DNA of 64,000 nucleotides. Origin: an uncultured bacterium. GTDB taxonomy: Bacteria; Patescibacteriota; Saccharimonadia; UBA4664. The notes below the pieces were generated by a model. It worked only from the letters and a program-made list of their open reading frames with translations, was not told the DNA's origin and did no database searches. The stretch is from assembly GCA_963740635.1 (NCBI GenBank), contig CAVUEQ010000003.1:33350-97349 (forward strand), written 5' to 3'. The translations under genes and the position numbers were made by a program. This document shows, piece by piece, positions 9,946-52,951 of the stretch; the stretch's first letter is position 1, and every line of letters begins with the position of its first letter.

Positions 9946-10422
9946 TTATTCGAGTGCAGCAACGTCCATGAGATCGACGGGGCGGGCCAGCAGCCTCTTG
10001 TAGCGAATGAGCTCTGGCTCGGGCATCACGGGCACAGCGACCCCGCCGAAATGCTCTGTGACCGCGAGCGGGATGGTGTTTTTTACCAAATGCTTTTGGC
10101 CCTTGGATACTACGTAAAAGCGTTCCGCCTGGCAAATGTCGATGGATACGCCGCCGAGCGAAATGACAATCTGTTGCTCGATGTCCCAATGCTCATTTTT
10201 GTAATGCCGCAGGTCGGCTGTGATGTGATCTGCGAAAACGTCCCTGACTTGTTGGATGGATGCTTTGCCGACTTGGATATCGATGTCCTCGAGCGGGCGC
10301 CTGGCCCCCCATTCGATGGCCGCGAGCCCCCCGATGACGACATACGGAATGTGATGCCCGGCCAGCGTTTTGGAAAGCATGGACAAGGCTTTGATTTCGG
10401 TGGCAGTGAGGATGCGGGCCAT
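9946..10422 (-). CDS. Putative nucleotidyltransferase-fold protein
   Basis: 158 aa. The YVVIGGLAAIEWGARRPLEDIDIQV motif resembles minimal NTase domains. Confidence 0.45.
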   Translation of the reverse strand: MARILTATEIKALSMLSKTLAGHHIPYVVIGGLAAIEWGARRPLEDIDIQVGKASIQQVRDVFADHITADLRHYKNEHWDIEQQIVISLGGVSIDICQAERFYVVSKGQKHLVKNTIPLAVTEHFGGVAVPVMPEPELIRYKRLLARPVDLMDVAALE

Positions 10423-27886: not shown

Positions 27887-28093
27887 TGGTTACAGTATAC
27901 AGCCGGGGCCGACAGCCGTGGCGGGCGCTGGGCGGCTCGCTCCGGACCTCTACAATCCTTCAGCTTTGACTGCGGACAGCAGTTGCGGGCCTACAGCCCG
28001 GACCAGCACCGTCGCCCAGGTGCGGAACGGCTGCCAGTTTTCGGCAATCGCTTCGAGCTCTCCGGTAGTTGGCAACCCCGGCAGATTATACAG

Positions 28094-28527
28094 CTGCCAA
28101 ATAAGACCATTTACGTATCAAGGGAAGACCAAGCCGTTTATGAGCGGGCTCAAAAACTAGCCGGAGACAACCTTTCGGCGGTGTTGGTGCGGGCACGAAG
28201 GGCTTTGCGCAGGAGAAGCGGTTTAACGGCCGTTTGCTCATTAAGTGGCAGGGCGCCGGCGATAATAATGACTGGTACACGGCCCGGGTTTTTAAGACGG
28301 CCAAGAATCAATGGGCGGTGGAGATCACCAAACAACCCAATTTCGAGGTATTTCGTCAGCGCGACTTTTGGCGGACGGCAGATTACTTTGACTATACACC
28401 AGACACCCAGCTCGTCGTATTCGCGTCATTGGAAGAGGCCGACGGCAAGCTGCCAAGTGCGCTGCTCAAGCTCATGCACCAGGCGCAAAACCGCGACGAA
28501 GCGCCGGTGGAATATTTAGATATTTAA
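28094..28527 (+). pseudogene. EXLDI-family protein gene, apparently frameshifted and lacking an ATG start
   Basis: The N-terminal part (L)PNKTIYVSREDQAVYERAQKLAGDNLSAVLVRA is in frame 2. The C-terminal part KRFNGRLLIKWQGAG...APVEYLDI-stop is in frame 1. The switch lies around 28185-28235, and a CTG stands where the family has Met. Confidence 0.55.
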
Positions 28528-28542
28528 TTTGAAGGAGTAATA

Positions 28543-28737
28543 ATGTCAAATGATCATCAACCTACAAACCCGTTTAAGGACTACGAGTCCGGTGGGATCG
28601 CACTGGCCGGCTGTTTTATGGTCGGCCTGGGCGCCGGGCTGTTCTACCGGCCGTTGTGGCTTGGCTTGCTGGCGGGCGGCGTTATCGGCATGGGCGTGGG
28701 CCTGCTCGCTATGGCCTGGATGAGCCGCGACCGGTAG
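28543..28737 (+). CDS. Small two-TM membrane protein
   Basis: 64 aa with GAAGGAG upstream of the ATG. Confidence 0.6.
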   Translation: MSNDHQPTNPFKDYESGGIALAGCFMVGLGAGLFYRPLWLGLLAGGVIGMGVGLLAMAWMSRDR

Positions 28738-28758
28738 CGAAACGCACCGGTAGGGACG

Positions 28759-28778
28759 CGAGGCCGAAATGGGCCTCG
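28759..28778 (+). terminator. Hairpin terminator candidate
   Basis: CGAGGCC-GAAATG-GGCCTCG followed by TTTGG. Confidence 0.45.
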
Positions 28779-28816
28779 TTTGGCCATGTTTTGTGGCTCG
28801 ATTAAGCCAATAATCC

Positions 28817-28826
28817 CTGGGGCGAG
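28817..28826. repeat. Direct repeat of the tRNA-His 3' end (att-like)
   Basis: CTGGGGCGAG is identical to 29989-29998, the 3'-terminal nucleotides of the minus-strand tRNA-His. The next ~20 nt (CTAGGATTCAAGTTTCGAAC) look like a degenerate T-arm. Confidence 0.6.
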
Positions 28827-28865
28827 CTAGGATTCAAGTTTCGAACGGAGTGTTACATAGGACGC

Positions 28866-29414
28866 CTAGTCCCTTGGTGGCTTCCAAAACCTGTATTTGC
28901 TGTTTTGGGCTACAATCAGCTGCTCTAGCCTGCTCCAATCCTGCCGAGCATTACCATCATCAAACATGGCATCAATATCCCAGGGGCTCAGGCCGGCGTA
29001 TAATCCCGCGAGTAAGTATCTTACGCCTTGATTGTCGTGAGGCGTGAACTTAAGGAGTAATTTGTAAAGCCGCTCAGCATCCTCGACTTCTCCTTCGATA
29101 TGATGGAGCGCCGCTTTATAGCAGATGGCTCGCAGATAGGGCCGATTTTCGATTATCCCCCAGTCCAATTGCCTGGGCCAGCGCGGAAAGCGCTGAATGG
29201 TTTTATCGTAGCCCGATTCTGTGTATTGGCGGACACCGTCAAAATACCCTGCAGCCTGATTAACGGCAACTAGCCCAACGTGTGTGGCAACAAAATCTTC
29301 GTTGAGAGCCAGCGCTTTTTGCAGATACTCCTCGGCCCCTGGCAGATTGCCATCCGATAGCAACTCCATTGCGTCATAATAGTAGTCTTCTAATCGAGCT
29401 TTCTTTGATGTCAT
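28866..29414 (-). CDS. TPR-like repeat protein, hypothetical
   Basis: 182 aa. EEYLQKALALNEDF...AERLYKLLLKF resembles TPR helices. The region is visibly lower in GC. Confidence 0.55.
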   Translation of the reverse strand: MTSKKARLEDYYYDAMELLSDGNLPGAEEYLQKALALNEDFVATHVGLVAVNQAAGYFDGVRQYTESGYDKTIQRFPRWPRQLDWGIIENRPYLRAICYKAALHHIEGEVEDAERLYKLLLKFTPHDNQGVRYLLAGLYAGLSPWDIDAMFDDGNARQDWSRLEQLIVAQNSKYRFWKPPRD

Positions 29415-29423
29415 ATCACGATA

Positions 29424-29651
29424 TTACCGTTTTGAAAGGAATTCTTCTGGCGAGAGGTTAATGTCTTTGCAAATCTGACGAAGGAGCAACGGCGATAGAT
29501 CTCGTGAGCCGTGCACGGGAACGGTGGTGGCACGGCCATCTGAATGGCGGAATTGCTGATGCGAGCCTTTTTGACGCGCTAATGTGAACCCGTGTTTCTC
29601 GAGCAAAGCGACTACTTCCTTGGGTTTGAGGACGGGGAGGTTACCGCCCAC
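29424..29651 (-). CDS. hicA: HicA-family mRNA interferase toxin
   Basis: 75 aa. LKPKEVVALLEKHGFTLARQKGSHQQFRHSDGRATTVPVHGSRDL is the HicA/YcfA signature. Confidence 0.85.
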   Translation of the reverse strand: MGGNLPVLKPKEVVALLEKHGFTLARQKGSHQQFRHSDGRATTVPVHGSRDLSPLLLRQICKDINLSPEEFLSKR

Positions 29652-29653
29652 GT

Positions 29654-29872
29654 TCAGGCAACTACCAGCTGAGTCCCCACAAACTCGGATTCGGGCTTGG
29701 GTAGATCACCATCCTCTAGGACAAGCTCGACCACCTCTTTGAGATTGTCTTGCAATTCCTCAAGAGTTTCAGCCTGTGTGTGAGCACCCGGCAGATCAGG
29801 AACGTAAGCAACGTAAAGACCGGTCGCGGTGTCGCGCTCGATTACAGCGGTGTAGGTGTGGTGGTCTTTCAT
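29654..29872 (-). CDS. hicB: HicB-family antitoxin (short form without a DNA-binding domain)
   Basis: 72 aa. YTAVIERDTATGLYVAYVPDLPGAHTQAETLEELQDNLKEVVEL is typical of the HicB/UPF0150 fold. Confidence 0.8.
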   Translation of the reverse strand: MKDHHTYTAVIERDTATGLYVAYVPDLPGAHTQAETLEELQDNLKEVVELVLEDGDLPKPESEFVGTQLVVA

Positions 29873-29989
29873 AATCGTATTTTAACATTTCCTGGTTGTC
29901 AGTTCTAAACAAGTTCAAAAGTGATTAGTGGGTTCGACGGGTTATAACATAATAATGACTCTGTGAAGCCATTATTTCTATAATTACAC

Positions 29990-30068
29990 TGGGGCGAGTA
30001 GTGGGACTTGAACCCACGACCTACTGGACCACAACCAGTCGCTCTAACCAAACTGAGCTATACCCGCC
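29990..30068 (-). tRNA. tRNA-His (anticodon GTG) with encoded G-1
   Basis: The reverse complement is G-GCGGGTA...ACTGG-TTGTGGT-CCAGT...GTGGG-TTCAAGT-CCCAC-TACTCGC-C-CCA. The extra 5' G lies opposite C73. Confidence 0.9.
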
Positions 30069-43450: not shown

Positions 43451-43911
43451 TGCCGAAGGCCCTCGACTAGCTGGTTTGAAACCGGGCCGCCGGCGCTGAA
43501 CTGGAGCCGCCGGCGCTGAGCGCTTACGACTTCGAAGTTAATCTTGAGGCGGTCGGCGGGCAGCCGGCCCTCGGCCACCCCGGCCCATTCGATGACGGTG
43601 ATGGTGTGCGGCTCGGCGATGTCTTCGCCGAGCTCGTCCCCCACCACGCCGGCGGTGTTAAGCCGGTACAGGTCGTAGTGGTGCAGCTCCCGGCCATCCG
43701 GCAGCGCGTAAATGTTGCTAAGGGTGAAGGTCGGGCTGGTAACCAGCTGCTTGTAGCCCAAGCCGGCTGCCAGGCCCTGGACGAAGGTGGTTTTACCCCC
43801 GCCGAGGTCGCTCGTCAGCTCGATCACTTCCCCGCCCGACAGCAACCGGGACAGGCGCCGGGCGGCCGACTGGGTACCCTCGGAGCTTGTAGTAGTAGTT
43901 TCGTAGGTCAT
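43447..43911 (-). CDS. tsaE: tRNA t6A biosynthesis ATPase TsaE
   Basis: It has the SDLGGGKTTFVQG P-loop, SPTFTL, and HYDLYRL. Start set at ATG 43911 (MTYETTT). Confidence 0.85.
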   Translation of the reverse strand: MTYETTTTSSEGTQSAARRLSRLLSGGEVIELTSDLGGGKTTFVQGLAAGLGYKQLVTSPTFTLSNIYALPDGRELHHYDLYRLNTAGVVGDELGEDIAEPHTITVIEWAGVAEGRLPADRLKINFEVVSAQRRRLQFSAGGPVSNQLVEGLRQ

Positions 43912-45568
43912 AGCGGAATTCATAGATAATATAGGCAATCGTAAGTGAGGCCAGGATAATCAGCAACCAGCGCCCGCCGGGGGTGGTAGCGGCAGCAAGC
44001 ACGGGCTTGACTGTGGACTTGGAGGCCTTGGGTTTGGCAGCCGCTTTGGCCTTTGTGGTTTTGGGTTTAGCGGCCGCTTTGGCTTTGACGGCTTTGGCTA
44101 CGGCGGCGGCGGTACCGGGAGCCACCAGGACGTTTTCAGCGCCGGGTGTTGGCTCACCGGTCCATTGCCAACTGCCGTCGATGAGGGCCCAGGCGTCGCC
44201 GGCGCCGGCTTTGCCGTACGTAACCGTCGCTCCAAGCTGGGCGCCGGCGGGCGTATAAAGCGCCACCGAGCTGCCGGAGTTAGAGAGCGCCAGCCTGGTG
44301 AGGGAGGATTTGAGCACTGCCAGGCCGCCGGCCGGAACGGTGACGTTTGCGATCACGTATTTTTTGCTCAGGTCCGACCCGGCCTTCAGCACATAGCCGG
44401 TGAGGTCAATTTCGTCCGGATTCGGGTTGTAGATCTCTATGAACTCGTCGTTGGCGTTGGTGAGCGGTGCGACGGGGTCTGGTAAAAGCTCGTTTAAGTA
44501 CGCGGCCGGGTAGTCGACTGCGTCTTCCGAACCGGCAGTGCCGGGAACGGGGGTGTACTCATTGGCCGCGCCGGGAGTGGGTGTGAGAGTCCACAACCAA
44601 GTGTCATCGATGAAGGCCCAGCTGGCTCCCGGAACAGCGGTCTCCCAGGCAGCAGCGGTATCGATGATCTCGCCGGCGGGATTGAGCAAATTTGCTACGC
44701 CCCCGGAATTAGATAGCGAGATGTTAGTATTGCCGGATGTCACGACCAGATAGCCGTCGGTTTCGAGGATGGTTTCGGGGAATTTATAGGTGTGGGTACC
44801 GGTTTTGACGGCGTAATCCTTGATATCGAGCGCATCCGTTCCGGTATTGTGGATTTCGACGAATTCATCGGCGGCATCGGTTTGCGGGGCGGCAGGATCG
44901 ATTAACAGTTCGCTGAGCTGGAGGCCGGCGGTGTTGGTGACCGGAGCCGGATCGGGTGACGCGGACGGAGCCCCAGGAGCCGGGCTGAATGTGGCAGTTG
45001 TCGATTGTGGTTGGGGGTTGGCTTGAATGAAATAATCCGCTGCATTGTCGCCGTGAGCGCCATCGGCGCCGGGGTGGCGCTCCAGGCTCTGACCGGCGGA
45101 CGGAGCGGCGGCCGCGTTACCGGTGCCGCAGGTCGCTGTGCCCCAGGCGAGCGCGTCCACGGGTGTTTTTGATGCATCGAGCAGCCGCACCGTACCGGCC
45201 GCAGCGAGTCCCGGACTGAAGGCGGAGTCGGGAGTTAAATATCCTGTGGCAGCGAACAAATAGTGCCCGCCCGCCGGGATGCTGCCGGCACTGACAGTTG
45301 ATTTGGTAATCCAGCCCTTTGTGCAATCTGAGCCGTTGGTGGCCGAGGCGGCGCGGTATTGAAGCGCCCAGCCGGACACCGGAATGTCGGCGCCGGAGGT
45401 GTTGGCCAACTCCACGAATTCGTCGGTGGACTTGGTTTGGCCGGCATTTTGCAACTGCGAGATGACTACCCCGCTGCCGGACGCGAAAGCCGGGCGCGTT
45501 AATACAACTTCTAATCCGAACATCTGACAGAGCAAAACCGAGACACAAACCGCAATCCGCAAACGCAT
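43793..45568 (-). CDS. Secreted protein with three lamin-tail-domain (LTD) repeats, a Lys/Ala-rich segment and a C-terminal TM anchor
   Basis: Start set at MRLRIAVCVSVLL, which looks like a signal peptide. The three LTD signatures are DEFVELANTSG..VSGW, DEFVEIHNTG..IKDY and DEFIEIYNPN..LTGY. A KAKAAAKPKTTKAKAAAKPK segment follows. The last ~40 codons overlap tsaE. Confidence 0.75.
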   Translation of the reverse strand: MRLRIAVCVSVLLCQMFGLEVVLTRPAFASGSGVVISQLQNAGQTKSTDEFVELANTSGADIPVSGWALQYRAASATNGSDCTKGWITKSTVSAGSIPAGGHYLFAATGYLTPDSAFSPGLAAAGTVRLLDASKTPVDALAWGTATCGTGNAAAAPSAGQSLERHPGADGAHGDNAADYFIQANPQPQSTTATFSPAPGAPSASPDPAPVTNTAGLQLSELLIDPAAPQTDAADEFVEIHNTGTDALDIKDYAVKTGTHTYKFPETILETDGYLVVTSGNTNISLSNSGGVANLLNPAGEIIDTAAAWETAVPGASWAFIDDTWLWTLTPTPGAANEYTPVPGTAGSEDAVDYPAAYLNELLPDPVAPLTNANDEFIEIYNPNPDEIDLTGYVLKAGSDLSKKYVIANVTVPAGGLAVLKSSLTRLALSNSGSSVALYTPAGAQLGATVTYGKAGAGDAWALIDGSWQWTGEPTPGAENVLVAPGTAAAVAKAVKAKAAAKPKTTKAKAAAKPKASKSTVKPVLAAATTPGGRWLLIILASLTIAYIIYEFRYDLRNYYYKLRGYPVGRPAPVPVAVGRGSDRADERPRRG

Positions 45569-45683
45569 CGCAAGCACTCCCCTTTTATTCGTCTGACGCA
45601 CACTCTGAGAACTTTCTGAAGGATATGCGAACAAAAACCGTAGTGCAAGCACGAGCGCGATATTTTGTGCAAATTCGGCTTAA

Positions 45684-46259
45684 CTAGGCGGGATGGGGCG
45701 AGGTTTGGCGGGGTGCGGCATTTTTGGCGTCCCCGTAGGACGCGGCCTTTTCGACATATATGGCATAACTGGTCGTTGAGCCCCCGAAAAGGTCGAGAAC
45801 CGGCCCCGGTTGGCAGAACCCTGGCCGGCCGGTCACATACTCGGCGTAGCTTGACCAGCGGTATTTACGGTAATCGTTAAATGGATGCGGGTTGAGGTGA
45901 ATGTAGCGGCTGACGCTCACAAGGTAGCCTTCGTCGCCGACAGGCTTGGCTTGGAACCGTCCCTGAAACAGTGATCCGACCGTGCCATACTTGCTGTTGT
46001 ACCGGCGGGCGTAGCCGGCGAGCAGAGACCTCATTGCAACTGTAACGGGCCTCGGGCCGGTCTGCCTGAGCAGCAGGTGGAAATGGTTGTCCATGAGGCA
46101 ATATGCAATTATGCCCAGCCCGTCGCGGTCGCAAAATTGGTCCAGCTTTGAAAGAAAGTGGCGCCGATCGGCCTTGTCCCTGAAAATGACGTCTTTGTGG
46201 TTGCCCCGGCTGAAGACGTGGTAGAAGCCCTTACTAAAAGAGCGTGGAGCGGTTCCCAT
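45684..46259 (-). CDS. IS200-like / REP-associated HUH tyrosine transposase (RAYT), copy 1
   Basis: 191 aa. It has YHVFSRGNHKDVIF, the HUH motif CLMDNHFHLLL, LFQGRF, and the catalytic-Tyr helix SRYIHLNP. Confidence 0.85.
   Translation of the reverse strand: MGTAPRSFSKGFYHVFSRGNHKDVIFRDKADRRHFLSKLDQFCDRDGLGIIAYCLMDNHFHLLLRQTGPRPVTVAMRSLLAGYARRYNSKYGTVGSLFQGRFQAKPVGDEGYLVSVSRYIHLNPHPFNDYRKYRWSSYAEYVTGRPGFCQPGPVLDLFGGSTTSYAIYVEKAASYGDAKNAAPRQTSPHPA
45727..45743. repeat. RAYT-1 hairpin, 3' side (inside the last codons of the CDS)
   Basis: On the gene strand it reads GCGTCCT-ACG-GGGACGC, encoding A-S-Y-G-D-A. Confidence 0.8.
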
Positions 46260-46312
46260 ATTATCTCCTGTATCTGTAAAACGCTATTATACCATACAAA
46301 AACCGTACACTT

Positions 46313-46328
46313 CGTCCTGCGGGGACGC
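46313..46328. repeat. RAYT-1 hairpin, 5' side
   Basis: CGTCCT-GCG-GGGACG(C), lying 54 nt beyond the RAYT-1 ATG and 46 nt before the GNAT ATG. Confidence 0.8.
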
Positions 46329-46373
46329 AAATAACGCCCGGTATGCTAAATTGGTTCGAAACGGATATCCGCT

Positions 46374-46913
46374 ATGCTTGACGAACATATCGACGACCAC
46401 ATTACGATGCGAACACTGGAGCAAAACGACGCAGCGGCGCTGTCTGCAGCCGTGGATGCCAACCGCGACCACCTCGGGGCGTTTTTACCGTGGGTTCCGA
46501 ACAGCCGAACTGTAGCCGATAGTCTTGCGTTCATCGAGGAAACCCAGCAGCGGATCCGCGATGGCAAGCAACTGGCGGCCGGGATTTGGCTGGACGGCAA
46601 ACTGGCCGGCCACATCGGGCTGGAGTTTTCCGGCGAAGGACGTCACGAGCGAGGCGAGATCGGCTACTGGCTGAGCCGTGATGCAACCGGCCGCGGTATC
46701 ATGACGCGGGGCGTAAAAGTGCTGATGGACGCGGCCATGACCGACGAAAGACTGACACAGTTTTTGATACGGGCGCGCACAGATAACCGGCCGAGCCGGG
46801 CGGTCGCCGGGCGGCTGGGCTTCCGGCACGCCGGGCGCGACGTGGGGGTGGAGCGCATGGGCGGCCAGACCTACGACTTGGAGCGGTACGAGCTAAAGCT
46901 CGGCTCTTCGTAA
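46374..46913 (+). CDS. GNAT family N-acetyltransferase (RimJ/RimL-like)
   Basis: 179 aa. It has LRTLEQNDAAALSAAVDANRDHLGAFLPW and GYWLSRDATGRGIMT motifs. The last 43 nt overlap the 3' end of RAYT copy 2. Confidence 0.8.
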   Translation: MLDEHIDDHITMRTLEQNDAAALSAAVDANRDHLGAFLPWVPNSRTVADSLAFIEETQQRIRDGKQLAAGIWLDGKLAGHIGLEFSGEGRHERGEIGYWLSRDATGRGIMTRGVKVLMDAAMTDERLTQFLIRARTDNRPSRAVAGRLGFRHAGRDVGVERMGGQTYDLERYELKLGSS

Positions 46914-47437
46914 GAAACGGCCTTTTCGACATATATGGCATAACTGGTCGTTGAGCCCCCCAATAAGTCCAATACTGGCCCCGGGTCACAGAATCCCGAT
47001 TTGGGCGAGACGTATTGTCGGTAGCTGGACCACCGGTACCGGCGGTAATCCGCAAATGGGGCGGGGTTGAGGTGAATGTAAGCGCTTAACCGTATCAGGT
47101 ATTGCTCATCGTGAACCAGCTTGGCCCGAAACCGGCCCTGAAACAAGGCCCCTGACGTTCCATATTTGGCGTTGTAACGGCGCGCGTAGCCGATTAACAG
47201 CGACCGGAGAGACTTCGAGAGAGGCAGCCGGCCGTCCTGCCTTAGCGCCAGGTGAAAATGGTTGTCCATCAGGCAATAAGCGAGGACGGTGATGTTGTCG
47301 CGCTCACAGTATTCATCAAGCTTAGAAAGAAAATATACCCGGTCGGAATTGTCCTTGTAAATGACATCCTTATGAACACCCCGGCTAAAAACGTGATAAA
47401 TTTGGTCTTCTGAAAATGCTCGCGGAATGGTTCCCAT
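46871..47437 (-). CDS. IS200-like / REP-associated HUH tyrosine transposase (RAYT), copy 2
   Basis: This is the C-terminal 188 codons of track ORF 46871..48754, whose upstream part is an R-rich shadow frame over pilB. It has MGTIPRAFSEDQIYHVFSRGVHKDVIY, CLMDNHFHLAL, and SAYIHLNP. By eye it is about 60% identical to copy 1. Confidence 0.85.
   Translation of the reverse strand: MGTIPRAFSEDQIYHVFSRGVHKDVIYKDNSDRVYFLSKLDEYCERDNITVLAYCLMDNHFHLALRQDGRLPLSKSLRSLLIGYARRYNAKYGTSGALFQGRFRAKLVHDEQYLIRLSAYIHLNPAPFADYRRYRWSSYRQYVSPKSGFCDPGPVLDLLGGSTTSYAIYVEKAVSYEEPSFSSYRSKS
46903..46920. repeat. RAYT-2 hairpin, 3' side
   Basis: On the gene strand it reads CCG-TTTCTT-ACG-AAGAG-C. The GNAT stop codon TAA (46911-13) lies in the loop. 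Confidence 0.8.
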
Positions 47438-47485
47438 ATTGCTCCGTATCTGTGGGGATCTACTATACCATACAAATACCGAATA

Positions 47486-47503
47486 CCGTTTCTTGCGAAG
47501 AGC
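47486..47503. repeat. RAYT-2 hairpin, 5' side
   Basis: CCG-TTTCTT-GCG-AAGAG-C, lying 49 nt beyond the RAYT-2 ATG and 37 nt before the pilB ATG. Confidence 0.8.
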
Positions 47504-47539
47504 TGCACGGATTGCGCTTATGGTAAAATAATAGGGACT

Positions 47540-49588
47540 ATGCGCATATCTGATGGTGAGCTCAAGAAGCTGCTGCTCGACTCCGGTTTGGTGAAACCGG
47601 AGGACGTGGAGGCGGCCACGCCCAAGACCGAGGGCGCCGAAAGCCTGCAGACGGCCGTGCTCAAGCGCAAGCTGATTTCGGACAAAGACCTGGTGAAGCT
47701 GTATGCCAAGAGCATTGACGTGCCGTTTGTTGACTTGGCCGAGCAGAAGATTCCGCGCGAGCTGCTGCTGAAGATTCCGGAGCGGATTGCCCGCAAGTAC
47801 CAGGTGGTGATGTTTGGCGCCGAGGAAGACGCGCTGCAGCTGGCGATGGCCGACCCGGAGGATTTCCAGGCGGCGGACTTTATTACGAAGCAGGTCGGCG
47901 GGAAACTCAGGACCTACATCGCGACGGCGACCGACATCGTGGCGGCGCTGGACCAGTACAAAGGCGACATTTCGAATGAGGTGACGAAGGCGATTAAGGA
48001 TTCGTCGTCGGAGGCGGCGGCGGAAGAGAAGGTGAGCGCCAAGGACCTGGCCGAGGACGCGCCGATCGCCAAGACGGTGAACGTGATATTGGAGTACGCG
48101 ATCAAGAGCCGGGCGTCGGACATCCACATCGAGCCGCGCGAAAACATCGTGCAGGTGCGCTACCGGGTGGACGGCGTGCTGCGCGAGACCATGACCTTGC
48201 CCAAGCCGATATTGGCCGCGGTGGTGAGCCGCATTAAGATTTTGGCCAACTTGAAAATTGACGAGCACCGGGTGCCGCAGGACGGGCGGTTTAAGTTTGC
48301 GATGGGCTCGAAGCAAGTGGCGCTGCGCGTGAGCACGCTGCCGATCATGGACGGCGAGAAGGTCGTGATGCGCATCCTGGACGAATCGGCGCGGGCGCTG
48401 TCGCTGGAAGAGCTCGGGTTTACCGGCCACGCGCTGGAGACGATTGTGCGCAACCTGCACAAGCCGCACGGCATGACGCTGGTGACCGGCCCGACGGGTT
48501 CGGGTAAATCGACCACTTTGTACTCGGTGCTGAGCCTGCTGAACACGCCGGGCGTGAACATTTCGACGGTGGAAGACCCGGTGGAATACCGCGTGATGGG
48601 CGTCAATCAGACGCAGGTGAATCCGAAAACCGGCATGACGTTCGCGGCGGGATTGAGGGCGCTGTTGCGGCAAGACCCCAACATCATCATGGTCGGGGAG
48701 ATCCGCGACGGCGAGACGGCCGACCTGGCCGTGCAGGCCGCGCTGACCGGCCACGTGGTACTATCCACACTGCACACCAACAACGCCGCCACCACGCTCC
48801 CCCGCCTGCTCGACATGGGCCTGGAGGCGTTTTTGATCGCCAGCACGGTGAACACCGTGATTGGCCAGCGGCTGGTGCGGCGGCTGTGCCAGGTGTGCCG
48901 CGTCGGCTACATTCCGGAGGGCGTGGAGCTGAGCAACGTGAAGCGCGACTTCCAGCTCGACGCGGCGTTGAAGCGGTTTAACGAACTCAAAGGCACGCCC
49001 GAGGCCACGCCGGAGGCAACGGTGGCGCCGACGGTGGAAGCTCCCCCGCTCATCCCGGTGGCGCAGGTTATCGTGCCGACCGAGCACAAGAAGGGCAAGG
49101 TCATCAACCCCGACCACGACATCGAAACCGCCGGCAGCATTCTCGACAAGATCGCGGCCGACCCCAACATTATCAACCGCAGCGCCGCCGACGCCGGCAA
49201 GTCCAAGGCCGCGCCCGCGGCGGGGGCTGCAGCGGCCGCCGCCCCGGGGGCGAAACCCGGCACCGCTACGGCCACCGCGCCGGCCCCGCCCGCGCCCCCG
49301 CCGTCGGTTGACCCCAAGGACCTCAAAGCCGGGCAGTTCATGCTGTTTAAGCCCGGCCCGGGCTGCGAGACCTGTGGCGGCGCCAGTTACCAGGGGCGCA
49401 TGGGTATATATGAAGTGCTGGAGGTCGACGAAACCATTTCCAAGATGATCGTGGGCCGCGCCACCTCGGACGACATCCAGATGGCGGCCGTGCGGGCCGG
49501 CATGCTGACAATGCAGCAGGACGGTTTCGTGAAAGCATTGCAGGGAAAGACTACTATTGAGGAAATCCTGCGCGTAACGCGGGAATAA
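47540..49588 (+). CDS. pilB: Type IV pilus assembly ATPase PilB (GspE family)
   Basis: 682 aa. It has an N-terminal T2SSE_N-like domain, the Walker A motif GPTGSGKSTT, an Asp box and a His box. A ~110-aa Ala/Pro-rich insert splits the CQVC...CETC tetracysteine motif. Confidence 0.9.
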   Translation: MRISDGELKKLLLDSGLVKPEDVEAATPKTEGAESLQTAVLKRKLISDKDLVKLYAKSIDVPFVDLAEQKIPRELLLKIPERIARKYQVVMFGAEEDALQLAMADPEDFQAADFITKQVGGKLRTYIATATDIVAALDQYKGDISNEVTKAIKDSSSEAAAEEKVSAKDLAEDAPIAKTVNVILEYAIKSRASDIHIEPRENIVQVRYRVDGVLRETMTLPKPILAAVVSRIKILANLKIDEHRVPQDGRFKFAMGSKQVALRVSTLPIMDGEKVVMRILDESARALSLEELGFTGHALETIVRNLHKPHGMTLVTGPTGSGKSTTLYSVLSLLNTPGVNISTVEDPVEYRVMGVNQTQVNPKTGMTFAAGLRALLRQDPNIIMVGEIRDGETADLAVQAALTGHVVLSTLHTNNAATTLPRLLDMGLEAFLIASTVNTVIGQRLVRRLCQVCRVGYIPEGVELSNVKRDFQLDAALKRFNELKGTPEATPEATVAPTVEAPPLIPVAQVIVPTEHKKGKVINPDHDIETAGSILDKIAADPNIINRSAADAGKSKAAPAAGAAAAAAPGAKPGTATATAPAPPAPPPSVDPKDLKAGQFMLFKPGPGCETCGGASYQGRMGIYEVLEVDETISKMIVGRATSDDIQMAAVRAGMLTMQQDGFVKALQGKTTIEEILRVTRE

Positions 49589-49612: not shown

Positions 49613-50833
49613 ATGGGCCAATTTAGTTACAGCGCGCGGGACAAGAGCGGAGCCATTAAGAAGGGCAGCCTGTTCGCGGCCGACCGCCCGGCTGCCACCG
49701 CGGCCCTCACCGAACAGGGCCTCACGCCGATCCTGGTGAAGGAGCTGGAGGCGAAGAAGGGTGGCAAGGGCCTGCTGGGCGGCCTGAGCCTGGGCGGCGG
49801 CAAGGTTAAGCTCCAGGACAAGGTGATTTTCAGCCGCCAATTCGCCACCATGATCAACGCCGGCGTGCCGATCGTGCAATCGCTCAACATCCTGCGCCAG
49901 CAGTCCGAATCCAAGAAGCTCAAAAAGACGGTGGCCGAGGTCGCCAAGCAGGTGGAGGGCGGCGGCACGCTGGCTGCGGCGCTGGCCGCGCACCCCGACG
50001 TGTTCAACCCGATCTATGTCAACATGGTGAAGGCCGGCGAAACCGGCGGTATTTTGGACCAGGTGCTCGACCGCCTGGCCACGCAGCAAGAAAAAGACGC
50101 CGAGGTGGTGAGCAAGGTGCGCAGCGCCATGATTTACCCGGCGGTCATCACTACGGCCACCGTGAGCGCTTTCTTCTTCCTGATGACCGTGATAGTGCCC
50201 AAGCTGTCGAGCATTTTCGAAAGCGTTGGGGCGCAGCTGCCCATATACACCAAGATCATGCTCGCGATTTCGGGATTCCTGGTGAAGGACTGGTATATAG
50301 TGATCGGCGGGTTTGTGGCGGCGGTGATCGCGTTTATGCGCTGGCACAAGACGACCAACGGCAAGCGCACGGTCGACCGGCTGATGCTCAAGGCGCCGAT
50401 ATTTGGGCCGATCCTCGTGAAGGTGAACGTGGCGCGGTTCGCGCGCACTTTCGGCTCGCTAATGGCCTCCGGTATCTCGGTGCTCGACGCCATCAACGCC
50501 ACTAAAACCGCCCTCGGCAACACGGTCTACCAGGATGAGCTGGCGATAGTGGCGCAGAAGGTCAAAAACGGCCGGCCGATGAGCGAGCACATCCGCGAAT
50601 CCAAGCACTTCCCGGCAATCGTGGGCCAGATGCTGAGCGTGGGCGAAGAAACCGGCCAGCTCGACAGCATTTTGCTGAAATTGGCGGAATTCTACGAAAA
50701 AGAAGTGGACACGGTGGTGTCGGGCATTACGTCGATCATTGAGCCGATTTTGATTATGGTGCTCGGCGGTATGGTCGGCTTTATCGTGATTTCGGTCTTC
50801 GGGCCGATCTCGAGCATTGGAAATTCGGTCTAG
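49613..50833 (+). CDS. pilC: Type IV pilus platform protein PilC (GspF family)
   Basis: 406 aa with two T2SSF repeats (FSRQFATMINAGVPI.. and FARTFGSLMASGISV..). Confidence 0.9.
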   Translation: MGQFSYSARDKSGAIKKGSLFAADRPAATAALTEQGLTPILVKELEAKKGGKGLLGGLSLGGGKVKLQDKVIFSRQFATMINAGVPIVQSLNILRQQSESKKLKKTVAEVAKQVEGGGTLAAALAAHPDVFNPIYVNMVKAGETGGILDQVLDRLATQQEKDAEVVSKVRSAMIYPAVITTATVSAFFFLMTVIVPKLSSIFESVGAQLPIYTKIMLAISGFLVKDWYIVIGGFVAAVIAFMRWHKTTNGKRTVDRLMLKAPIFGPILVKVNVARFARTFGSLMASGISVLDAINATKTALGNTVYQDELAIVAQKVKNGRPMSEHIRESKHFPAIVGQMLSVGEETGQLDSILLKLAEFYEKEVDTVVSGITSIIEPILIMVLGGMVGFIVISVFGPISSIGNSV

Positions 50834-50920
50834 TTTGACATGCAACCGTAAGCGGTTTATGATTTGGGCTAAATAGAGCATGGCTTTATTCGTCCACAAA
50901 TATTAAGGAGGTGAGCACTC

Positions 50921-51355
50921 GTGTCCATCAACAAACTATTAAAGAAACAGGGCGGATTTACACTCCTAGAGCTCTTGATCGTAATTGTGATCATCGGCAT
51001 CTTGGCGCTGTTGATCATCCCGAACATTACGTCCGCGCCGAAGAAGGCCCGCGACACCAAGCGCAAGACCGACATCACGACGGTCCGCAAAGGTCTCGAG
51101 GAATACTTCGTGAACAACAACGTGTACCCCAACGCGTTGACGGAGCTCACGACCGGTTCGGCTCCGATCGTCAAGACCCTGCCGACCGACCCCAAGAACA
51201 CCGGCGCGTTCGTGTACGTGTACACGCCCGCCAACTCTTACTCGACCTACACGCTTGAGGCGTGTCTCGAGAACGACCAGGACAACGGTCAGAACGTGAT
51301 TCCTCCGGTCGGCTCCTGCACAACCAAAACGTTCCAGCTGGTGAACGGCAACTAA
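50921..51355 (+). CDS. pilA: Type IV major pilin
   Basis: GTG start 9 nt after AAGGAGG. It has the prepilin leader and class III signal KKQGGFTLLELLIVIVIIGILA. A strong terminator follows. Confidence 0.8.
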   Translation: MSINKLLKKQGGFTLLELLIVIVIIGILALLIIPNITSAPKKARDTKRKTDITTVRKGLEEYFVNNNVYPNALTELTTGSAPIVKTLPTDPKNTGAFVYVYTPANSYSTYTLEACLENDQDNGQNVIPPVGSCTTKTFQLVNGN

Positions 51356-51374
51356 AGCAACTGCTTTAGGAAAC

Positions 51375-51423
51375 CCGGGATTATCCCGGTAAGCAAAATG
51401 GGATCCGAAAGGGTCCCATTTTT
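51375..51423 (+). terminator. Tandem hairpins, the second a canonical intrinsic terminator, after pilA
   Basis: The first is CCGGGA-TTA-TCCCGG (51375-89). The second is ATGGGATCC-GAAA-GGGTCCCAT (51398-51419) followed by TTTTT. Confidence 0.75.
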
Positions 51424-51455
51424 GTATTTGAGAGAATATATCTATCAAGTGACTG

Positions 51456-51521
51456 TTCCACTATATGGAATTTTGCCTGTTACTACAGATAAGGGATCAA
51501 GAATTATTCCATATACTGGAA
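51456..51521. promoter_or_regulatory. Two copies of the TTCCA-N5-TGGAA inverted repeat (candidate operator pair)
   Basis: TTCCActataTGGAA (51456-70) and TTCCAtatacTGGAA (51507-21), with centres 51 bp apart. They lie in the AT-rich gap between pilA and the minor-pilin genes. Confidence 0.45.
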
Positions 51522-51586
51522 CACCTCCCAAAGGTGGACGCCCTTTTTCCTTAAAAGAAAGTGAGCGTAAGCGTTATAATGAAAAT

Positions 51587-52951
51587 ATGAAACGCGATAC
51601 CCAAGGCGGGTTCACGCTGGTAGAGGTTGTCTTCGGGGCTGTCATCATGGCCCTGATGATTACAGCCATAAGCACGTTATTCCTGGATAACCTGCGCGTG
51701 GTGACGCTGGGTAAGGCCAGGGCGATCGGACTGGCGATTGCCAACGAGAAGTTGGAGGCGCTGCGCGACCTGCCGTATGATTCGCTGGCGACCCAGGGCG
51801 GCGCGATTTACCCGCCCGGCAATATTCTCGATAACGAAACGCTAACGCGTGACAACTTCAAGTTCAGTGTCAATACCAATATCAGCTATGTGGACGACCC
51901 TTATGACGGCTATGCCAGCTGCCCCTGTGGGAGTGGGCCCGCCCAGGGCAAACCCCAGGATTTGTACCCGTACGATTACAAAAAGGCGGAGATCAACGTG
52001 AAGCTGGTGTCGAGCGGGCAGGTGGTGGCCACGCTCACCACCAATGTGGCCGGAAAGGCGGCGGAGACGTCGTCGAACACTGGGATCTTGAGCATTACGG
52101 TGCTTGATGCCAACGGGCAGCCGGTTCCGGACGCGGTCGTGACGGTGACCAATGCCAACCCCAGCCCTGCTGTTAATATTACAACTACCACCGACAGCAA
52201 CGGACTGGTGGTGATCCCGAAGCTGCCGCCGGATTCGAGCAACCGCTACCAAGTGACCGCGAGCCTGGCGGGATATTCGACCGACGGCACCATTCCCGAC
52301 CCGGCCGGGTCGCAAAACGCGGTGGAGCTCAACCCCAACGTGCTGGCGCAACAGATCACCGCGCTCACCTTGTCAATCGACCGGGTAAGTACTTTGTACG
52401 TCCACGTCGTGGATACCAGCGGCAACCCGGTGTCGGGGTTGGCGGTGACCACGTCGAGCACCAAGAAGATCAAGACCAACCCGGATGAATTCAAGTACTC
52501 GCAGGCTACTAACACCAACGCCAGCGGCAACATTACGCTGACCGGCATGGAGTGGGGGGCCTACAGCTTCGCGGTACCGGCCGGGAATTACATCGTGGCT
52601 ACCTCTCCGTATGCCCCCGTGGCACTTAACCCCAATGGCTCTGTCACGGCCAATCTGGTTGTAAGCACGTCGAGCACGTGGCCGGAGATCACCAGCCTCA
52701 CTCCCCTCACCCAGGCCACAGGCTCCAACCCGGTCTCGATCACAGTGACAGGCGTGAACTTTAGCAGCGGCCAGGTGAAGCTGCAAAAATCGGGCCAAAG
52801 CGACATCAATTGCACCGGCGGCTCCACTACCAGCACCACCATCACGTGCGACTTGAACCTCACCGGCGCGGTCACCGGGGATTGGGACGTGGTGGTGACC
52901 AAGAGCGGCAATTCGACCACGCAGACAGGAGGGTTCAGTGTCACACCGTAG
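51587..52951 (+). CDS. Large pilin-like protein with adhesin-type Ig-like domains
   Basis: Start set at MKRDTQGGFTLVEVVFGAVIMAL, a prepilin-type N-terminus. It has a CarboxypepD_reg-like segment (VLDANGQPVPDAVVTVTNAN...DSNGLVVIPKLPP) and a C-terminal IPT/TIG-like segment. Confidence 0.7.
   Translation: MKRDTQGGFTLVEVVFGAVIMALMITAISTLFLDNLRVVTLGKARAIGLAIANEKLEALRDLPYDSLATQGGAIYPPGNILDNETLTRDNFKFSVNTNISYVDDPYDGYASCPCGSGPAQGKPQDLYPYDYKKAEINVKLVSSGQVVATLTTNVAGKAAETSSNTGILSITVLDANGQPVPDAVVTVTNANPSPAVNITTTTDSNGLVVIPKLPPDSSNRYQVTASLAGYSTDGTIPDPAGSQNAVELNPNVLAQQITALTLSIDRVSTLYVHVVDTSGNPVSGLAVTTSSTKKIKTNPDEFKYSQATNTNASGNITLTGMEWGAYSFAVPAGNYIVATSPYAPVALNPNGSVTANLVVSTSSTWPEITSLTPLTQATGSNPVSITVTGVNFSSGQVKLQKSGQSDINCTGGSTTSTTITCDLNLTGAVTGDWDVVVTKSGNSTTQTGGFSVTP

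Follow-up and report, generated by a model that had tools for sequence, protein, structure and literature searches.

Within a 64-kb window of DNA from a Candidatus Saccharimonadia genome (the window being the whole stretch that was analysed), we examined two genes that encode Y1 HUH nucleases and stand in tandem on the reverse strand, each bounded by its own pair of inverted repeats. A gene for a GNAT acetyltransferase of the RimJ/RimL type, which may be either cargo or a bystander, lies between them on the opposite strand. Each nuclease gene together with its two ends forms a unit of ~600-620 nt, referred to below as unit 1 and unit 2 (Table 1). The two proteins share 66% amino acid identity, and their genes are ~70% identical at the nucleotide level. 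In the published literature, TIRtrons are RAYT-like genes (here TIRYTs) flanked by terminal inverted repeats (TIRs) in place of repetitive extragenic palindromes (REPs) (PMC3733652), and the locus is a short-form variant of this described, neglected class. The original prediction held that two diverged HUH genes each possess their own inverted, matched ends; the Pfam matches, the identity between the proteins and the repeats themselves bear this out, and the sequences and positions that it gave were all correct.

Table 1 Features of the two units and of the gene between them, in window coordinates
Feature	Position	Strand	Description
Unit 1 gene, Y1 HUH nuclease, short-form TIRYT	45684..46259	-	191 aa, P0001; Pfam Y1_Tnp 45.5 bits
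Unit 1 3' terminal inverted repeat, outer box	45717..45743	.	core GCGTCCCCGTAGGACGC at 45727-45743; within the open reading frame (ORF), encodes ASYGDA
Identical block	45743..45785	.	43 nt, same as 46918-46960; takes in spacer, inner box and neighbouring codons
Unit 1 3' inner box TATGGCATAAC (+ strand)	45759..45769	.	inverted copy of the 5' inner box; codons for SYAIYVEK
Unit 1 5' inner box TGTATGGTATAAT	46286..46298	-	read as an extended -10 promoter (TGnTATAAT)
Unit 1 5' outer box	46313..46338	.	CGTCCTGCGGGGACGC plus a 10-nt outward extension
GNAT (RimJ/RimL-type) acetyltransferase gene, between units	46374..46913	+	Pfam Acetyltransf_3 73.7 bits
Unit 2 gene, Y1 HUH nuclease	46871..47437	-	188 aa, P0002; Pfam Y1_Tnp 38.9 bits
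Unit 2 3' outer box, GCTCTTCGTAAGAAACGG on the + strand	46903..46920	.	within the ORF, encodes VSYEEP; 40-nt arm, 73%
Unit 2 3' inner box TATGGCATAAC	46934..46944	.	in register with the boxes of other elements
Unit 2 5' inner box TGTATGGTATAGT	47462..47474	-	read as an extended -10-like promoter
Unit 2 5' outer box CCGTTTCTTGCGAAGAGC	47486..47503	.	outer edge is where L171 homology resumes

Both proteins carry the motifs DNHFHL and YIHLNP, as predicted, together with LFQGRF and RWSSY. Compared with Table 1 of PMC6006769, this set is the signature of TnpA-Y1 subclass 2.1, namely NH[YF]H, FQ (replacing W), Y[IV]HLNP, and SS in the proximal tail. Subclass 2.1 has been equated with Bertels' Group 1 RAYTs (PMC5581495) and with the TIRYTs of Di Nocera (PMC6006769); its members are reported as not REP-associated and have a distal C-terminal helix-turn-helix (HTH) domain resembling Bac_DnaA_C, HTH_23 or HTH_28 (PMC6006769). 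No such C-terminal domain was found in the window proteins, in both of which Pfam detects Y1_Tnp alone.

The catalytic residues H59, H61 and Y119 are invariant in an alignment of 35 clade sequences, indicating that nuclease chemistry is under selection. An AlphaFold 2 model built from the profile of this 35-member clade reached a pLDDT of 87 and is ordered to about residue 172, its C-terminus consisting of a short helix (residues 162-170) and a disordered tail. The top Foldseek match in the PDB was 4ER8, the E. coli TnpA-REP protein bound to a REP hairpin (E 2.7e-8, TM 0.64/0.74, 14% identity in the structural alignment), and the IS200, IS608 and ISDra2 TnpA proteins gave TM scores of 0.44-0.47 against the model. 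A sequence search of the PDB returned marginal ISDra2 matches only (E ~0.13), and the sole NCBIfam match was REP_Tyr_transpos (NF047646), at 38.6 and 40.6 bits against an 80-bit cutoff. These results support the view that both genes encode intact HUH/Tyr Y1 enzymes from the RAYT side of the family. A third paralog, P0024, lies elsewhere on the source contig; it is 52-57% identical to the other two and belongs to a different subclade, and the paralogs are old and single-copy. We also considered a defence-system reading, which was dropped when PADLOC gave no matches for the two nucleases or the GNAT protein.

Matched ends and what they overlap

The repeat of unit 1 (CGTCCTRCGGGGACG) occurs in the window only at 45728-45742 (-) and 46313-46327 (+), and that of unit 2 (CCGTTTCTTRCGAAGAGC) only at 46903-46920 (-) and 47486-47503 (+). 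Each type is thus present just twice in 64 kb, in agreement with the original prediction; in the control for CCGTTTCTTRCGAAGAGC, allowing up to 3 mismatches, two matches appeared in 0 of 100 shuffles. Neither repeat has dispersed copies in the window, and scanning 228 kb (the window and related loci) with a profile for each end type turned up no orphan ends. The repeats had been described as flanking the genes: this is true of the 5' copies, which lie upstream, but both 3' copies sit within their own ORF and not past its end. Similarly, the core positions had been placed correctly, but the true inverted repeat is longer, extending over 26 nt at 85% identity in unit 1 (where the 3' arm is complementary to 46313-46338) and over 40 nt at 73% in unit 2. 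A terminator function, an alternative that had been raised for the repeats, does not apply: they have no T-run, and a terminator scan called none at any repeat.

To these two units we added seven elements fetched as close homologues (52-71% amino acid identity to unit 1), giving nine independent elements: units 1 and 2, L161 (L161/162), L163, L164, L165, L166, L167 and L168. In each of the seven, a short upstream sequence recurs inverted at the 3' end of the gene. With an inner motif common to all of them as anchor, the 18 ends aligned in register and could be divided into two boxes separated by a spacer. The inner box, TATGGYATAA, lies ~16 nt inward of the outer box and is common to all 18 ends, with 94% identity among 5' ends and 83% among 3' ends. 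The 16-nt outer box is variable but matched within each element: an element's own 5' and 3' copies are identical at 14.0 of 16 positions, compared with 8.0 of 16 between elements. An end's own partner was its best outer-box match (ties counted) in all nine elements, and the score of the true pairing was reached once in 200,000 random re-pairings. The spacer is not inverted (33% own-pair identity), being 74% identical among 5' ends and 69% among 3' ends, and columns outside the boxes are only 24-27% identical between elements, leaving no conserved outside tag. The pattern first seen in the window, of ends that differ between units and match within a unit, therefore holds across the nine elements. 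Protein distance and box distance were also correlated (Mantel r=0.62, p=0.002).

The repeats had been taken for hairpins, a description that is credible for unit 1 but not for unit 2. Folded as single-stranded DNA (ssDNA), the two copies in unit 1 reached -6.8 and -4.8 kcal/mol (z-scores -1.9 and -2.9); those in unit 2 reached -2.8 kcal/mol, equalled or bettered by 49 of 200 shuffles, and -0.5 kcal/mol, equalled or bettered by 156 of 200. Across the nine elements, 16 of the 18 ends fold no better than shuffles, the exceptions being the two of unit 1, whose repeat is the only credible hairpin of the tested set. In ssDNA folds of whole units, the two ends pair with each other and close the unit, in minimum free energy and centroid structures alike, and this end-to-end pairing is favoured over local hairpins. 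Because the 18 ends align in register while 16 of them fail to fold, conservation attaches to a terminal inverted repeat of bipartite form and not to a hairpin. What is kept together with the gene elsewhere is accordingly the matched inverted ends, found in all nine elements, but not hairpins, which the seven relatives do not share. A C-G to T-A change between the units had been offered as compensatory and hence as support for a hairpin. We rejected it as evidence, since it concerns a single pair of a stem that breaks down elsewhere, and the arms are constrained in any case as inverted copies and by coding.

The inner box of the 5' end has the form TG-G-TATAAT (TGGTATAAT) and reads as a textbook extended -10 promoter. 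Downstream of it in unit 1 come a 5' untranslated region (UTR) and then a ribosome-binding site (ACAGATACAGGAG), and a conserved ACAGATA-GGAG ribosome-binding region follows the 5' inner box. A two-hexamer promoter scanner did not call the TGnTATAAT elements because they have no -35 match. The stretch of ~55 nt that had been noted as conserved ahead of each gene does contain a block, TTTGTATGGTATA[AG]TAG, found in the window at the two 5' flanks only, and it is probably best explained by the promoter, the 5' UTR and the ribosome-binding site.

A similar element, TTATGGTAAAAT, lies upstream of pilB at 47519-47530 and is kept in three genomes (alignment A4, columns 89-100). It resembles the TIRYT inner box TGTATGGTATAAT; TGGTAnAAT may be the form that extended -10 promoters usually take in this lineage, and some of the conservation of the inner box would then be accounted for.

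At the 3' end, the ends overlap coding sequence. The inner box supplies the codons of SYAIYVEK, in the model's last helix, and the disordered tail, where residues 174-189 have pLDDT <50, comes from the outer box. In unit 2 the TAA stop codon of the GNAT gene also falls within the 3' outer box. A 43-nt run at the 3' coding ends, unnoticed in the original prediction, is 100% identical between the two units (Table 1). In a stretch of 17 codons around this block (residues 157-173), conserved residues use identical codons at 14 of 15 positions, versus 56 of 102 elsewhere (Fisher p=0.004). These frozen synonymous sites indicate constraint at the DNA level, possibly with some gene conversion.

The 3' end of the TIRYT gene adjoins a convergent gene in five of the nine elements. 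In the window, the GNAT and unit 2 ORFs overlap by 43 nt (46871-46913); in L161 (10495-10498), L163 (10552-10555), L164 (10579-10582) and L167 (10573-10576), the two stop codons overlap by 4 nt, the overlap reading CTAG in L161 and L163. This abutment may reflect a taste for gene 3' ends, or ORF calls that run on until the repeat supplies a stop. Within the same set, the P0006 gene (L161 ~9950-10000, L162 ~765-815) is annotated from an internal GTG; the N-terminal codons of the family (..TTARSFEAGRFYH) lie upstream, with the ATG out of frame beside a run of five G. The sequence is the same in two samples; a frameshifted pseudogene and an assembly error common to both are the two explanations.

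The pilB-tsaE interval

The units are bordered on one side by pilB and on the other by a gene for a lamin-tail domain (LTD) protein that adjoins tsaE, in a window whose RNase Y is 83-84% identical to Candidatus Saccharimonadia proteins. Comparison with Saccharimonadia relatives shows that the pilB-tsaE interval is a variable island. In the window (43946-47502) it holds the LTD gene, unit 1, the GNAT gene and unit 2, and in the syntenic L164 (8139-11199) a trehalase gene, a hypothetical gene, one TIRYT gene in the opposite orientation, a UPF0114 gene and the LTD gene. L171 (8736-8980) comes from a closer relative, with RNase Y 88% identical, and has only 316 nt between pilB and tsaE; the interval is reduced to ~316 nt throughout L171-L174, with a 58-codon LTD remnant. 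By BLASTN, the homology to L171 resumes at window position 47503, the outer edge of the 5' box of unit 2, which weakly supports the repeat edge as a recombination point. L171 was considered as an empty site that would prove insertion, and was rejected in that role because an LTD remnant is present and the breakpoint lies beside the pilB promoter.

Interpretation and competing explanations

The explanation that we favour, with a probability of roughly 0.7, is that the locus holds two diverged TIRtrons in tandem, encoding short-form TIRYTs of subclass 2.1 without the HTH domain, in a Candidatus Saccharimonadia genome. The element-specific outer box of 16-18 nt would hold the specificity, next to an inner box that is clade-wide, and each enzyme would recognise its own two ends. 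In ssDNA these ends would pair to form a panhandle that closes the unit, at which the enzyme could cut and rejoin by means of Tyr119 and the HUH metal site, in the manner of TnpA-REP and IS608 TnpA at hairpins. Since the 5' site overlaps the promoter, binding there might also autoregulate expression. The data show the protein fold, the catalytic residues, the matched and co-varying ends, and a lack of dispersed copies in the available sequence; binding, cleavage, autoregulation and any mobility are inferred. In that sequence the units behave as diverged paralogs of low copy number, and neither proliferate like an insertion sequence nor give rise to REPs.

Several traits agree with the published TIRtrons. 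Terminal inverted repeats and not REP hairpins enclose the RAYT-like Y1 HUH gene, the motif signature is identical to that of subclass 2.1, and copy number is low, with diverged paralogs of the same genome bearing different TIRs; genomes in which two or three TIRYT genes have TIRs that differ have been reported (PMC3733652). Many published TIRs share the motif GGGGWSAS, which is held by a majority and is not obligatory, and some overlap the 3' end of the gene (PMC3733652), as those of the window can. The motif reappears in distant relatives of the window genes, which we collected by scanning genome and metagenome contigs with the clade alignment (33-48% identity; 148 among the matches listed, to which the following counts refer). 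A flanking inverted repeat scoring above every shuffle was present in 130 of the 148, of which 93 contain an exact GGGGWSAS and 16 more match it at 7 of 8 positions, and copies of the repeat are nearly always limited to the gene flanks. The proteins of these relatives have a median of 257 aa and carry an HTH domain at the C-terminus, for which the longer ones give Bac_DnaA_C, HTH_23 or HTH_38 matches.

The window clade differs from the published class in other respects. Its proteins, at 188-191 aa, are short of the published TIRYT median of 238 aa and have no distal HTH, and its GGGGWSAS has decayed: unit 1 retains 7 of 8 positions, on the opposite strand only, unit 2 at most 6 of 8, and L163 and L168 retain 7 of 8. 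Furthermore, the TIR of this clade is bipartite, with a clade-wide inner box that doubles as a promoter, the 3' TIR of both window units is entirely intragenic, and the units are arranged in tandem around a GNAT gene in a bacterium of the Candidate Phyla Radiation (CPR).

Some of these differences, together with other observations, weigh against the TIRtron interpretation. The GGGGWSAS motif is degenerate in both window units, and the C-terminal HTH carried by all published subclass 2.1 TIRYTs is absent. The correlation between protein and box distances is expected from co-inheritance alone, and the 43-nt identity between the units could be due in part to gene conversion of neighbours. The arrangement in L171, which retains the last 58 LTD codons, is for that reason a deletion derivative and not a clean empty site, and the position of the breakpoint, 47503, may be due to selection for retaining the pilB promoter, which starts ~16 nt away. 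Finally, binding and cleavage by TIRYTs are extrapolated from TnpA-REP and IS608.

TIRYTs are the largest RAYT group (subclass 2.1 or Group 1) and are biochemically uncharacterised in the literature. The clade offers a compact test case, with ~190-aa enzymes that have no extra HTH domain and ends resolved into a conserved box and a putative specificity box, and its two diverged cognate pairs, which lie within a few hundred bases of each other, are well suited to cross-specificity assays. It also extends the TIRtron layout to Saccharimonadia, members of the CPR whose mobile-element biology is poorly known. The conceptual gain is modest, because both the layout and the occurrence of multiple enzymes with different TIRs in a genome are already published.

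A further possibility assigns the locus a more active role. Short-form Saccharimonadia TIRYTs would be active, self-specific ssDNA nucleases whose specificity resides in the variable outer box and which, the HTH domain being lost, recognise their ends by the Y1 core alone; the tandem pair would form two orthogonal enzyme/site systems, and their activity would drive cassette turnover (the GNAT, UPF0114, trehalase and LTD genes) in the pilB-tsaE island of these reduced CPR genomes. As a whole, we regard this as unlikely.

It is also quite unlikely that the units are non-mobile and their repeats purely regulatory, with an operator and promoter at the 5' end, at the 3' end either another operator that could serve in DNA looping or a side effect of coding constraints, and no cleavage. 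The perfect TGnTATAAT of the 5' inner box, the position of the outer box just upstream of the would-be -35, and the age and single-copy state of the paralogs all suit such an arrangement; a TGGTAnAAT-type element also precedes pilB in three genomes, implying that part of the inner-box conservation is simply promoter. However, regulation of this kind does not account for HUH and Tyr residues that are invariant in 35 of 35 clade members, nor for a 3' outer box that encodes a disordered tail and nevertheless tracks the 5' box in nine of nine elements. Flanking inverted repeats also persist in the 130 distant relatives mentioned above, where promoters and spacings are quite different.

The original prediction had interpreted the repeats as REP-like hairpins in a REPtron, in which each REP-type ssDNA hairpin is bound by its cognate RAYT and a dispersed REP/BIME population exists elsewhere in the genome. 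The E. coli TnpA-REP (RayT/YafM) REPtron (PMC3333891; 4ER8, PMC3479197) does provide the best structural match, on a REP hairpin, and shares the HUH and single-Tyr chemistry, the Y...NP motif, inversely oriented cognate repeats flanking the gene, and a single-copy, apparently domesticated state. In addition, REP_Tyr_transpos is the only NCBIfam model matched, the unit 1 repeat can form a GC-rich hairpin of 6-7 bp at the energies given above, and the window makes visible only ~6% of a genome of roughly 1 Mb. In the REPIN-RAYT systems of Pseudomonas and Stenotrophomonas (PMC3116915, PMC3686654), several diverged enzymes of one genome likewise have a repeat type each, and in both cases this implies matched specificities of enzyme and DNA.

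Despite these similarities, the REPtron label did not hold up, and we consider it improbable. E. coli REPs are imperfect palindromes of 20-40 nt with a 5' GTAG tag and ~600 dispersed copies, whereas the ends of the window clade are mostly non-palindromic (16 of 18 unfolded beyond shuffles), have no GTAG-type tag at the hairpin foot, and show neither extra copies in 64 kb nor orphan ends in 228 kb; in unit 1, GTAG occurs in the loop of one repeat copy only. Similarly, REPIN-RAYT repeats number in the tens to hundreds and belong with subclasses 2.2 and 2.5, compared with just two gene-flanking copies per repeat in the window, and subclass 2.1 is the one reported as not REP-associated (PMC6006769). 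Similarity to TnpA-REP at the sequence level is low, the NCBIfam scores falling under the cutoff and the structural alignment showing the 14% identity already noted, and whole-unit folds choose end-to-end pairing over local hairpins. Overall, four of the five features of REPtron membership are lacking; the fifth is dispersal through the genome, and the REPtron reading keeps some probability for unit 1 and for the genome beyond the sequence covered.

Alternatively, the matched inverted repeats could be crossover sites of an invertible cassette, at which the Y1 enzyme flips the segment between them. With pilB and the LTD gene as reference, the gene in the syntenic L164 does point the opposite way to that in the window. 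Against this, the promoter lies within the repeats, such that flipping the segment would not turn the enzyme gene on or off, and the gene content between pilB and the LTD gene differs too, for which a simple inversion is insufficient as an explanation. Y1 HUH enzymes are not known to act as invertases, and we consider this account very improbable.

Least credible of all is that the units are autonomous insertion sequences of the IS200/IS605 type that transpose via subterminal hairpins, a class invoked by the original prediction and suggested by the Pfam domain name ('Transposase IS200 like'), the IS200-like unit size of ~0.6 kb and a gene position that varies among related genomes, but contradicted already by the motifs (YIHLNP, of the Y...NP and not the Y...Q class, in place of Y[IV]ENQ, and NHFH in place of DH[VI]H; PMC6006769) and by the orientation of the ends, which are inverted repeats here, whereas IS200/IS605 elements such as IS608 and ISDra2 have subterminal hairpins in the same orientation and no terminal inverted repeats. 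The two groups share the Y1 HUH fold and an expected ssDNA cleavage via a 5'-phosphotyrosine intermediate; IS200/IS605 elements, however, occur in many near-identical copies, often linked to tnpB, whereas the copies compared here are just 52-66% identical and not ~99%, with a structure nearer TnpA-REP than IS200-type TnpA and no match to any NCBIfam IS200 model.

Other observations in the window

An Rfam scan of the 64 kb returned seven tRNAs only. At ~60% GC, the sequence gives rise to long spurious ORFs in the mechanical ORF list, antisense ones among them. One of these, a 627-aa ORF at 46871-48754 (-), is the unit 2 frame prolonged upstream and antisense to pilB; the true start of the unit 2 gene is the ATG at 47437. 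The 2-kb bin at 46001-48000, which covers both units and the GNAT gene, has 56.6% GC compared with ~60% across most of the window. This dip is mild, and lower values are found in the bins at 28001-30000 (52.2%) and 50001-52000 (54.0%). The neighbouring LTD gene (43793-45652, -) encodes a 619-aa protein with three lamin-tail domains, a Lys/Ala-rich stretch and a C-terminal hydrophobic anchor; its start is probably at an internal signal-like sequence, MRLRIAV, ~28 codons past the listed GTG.

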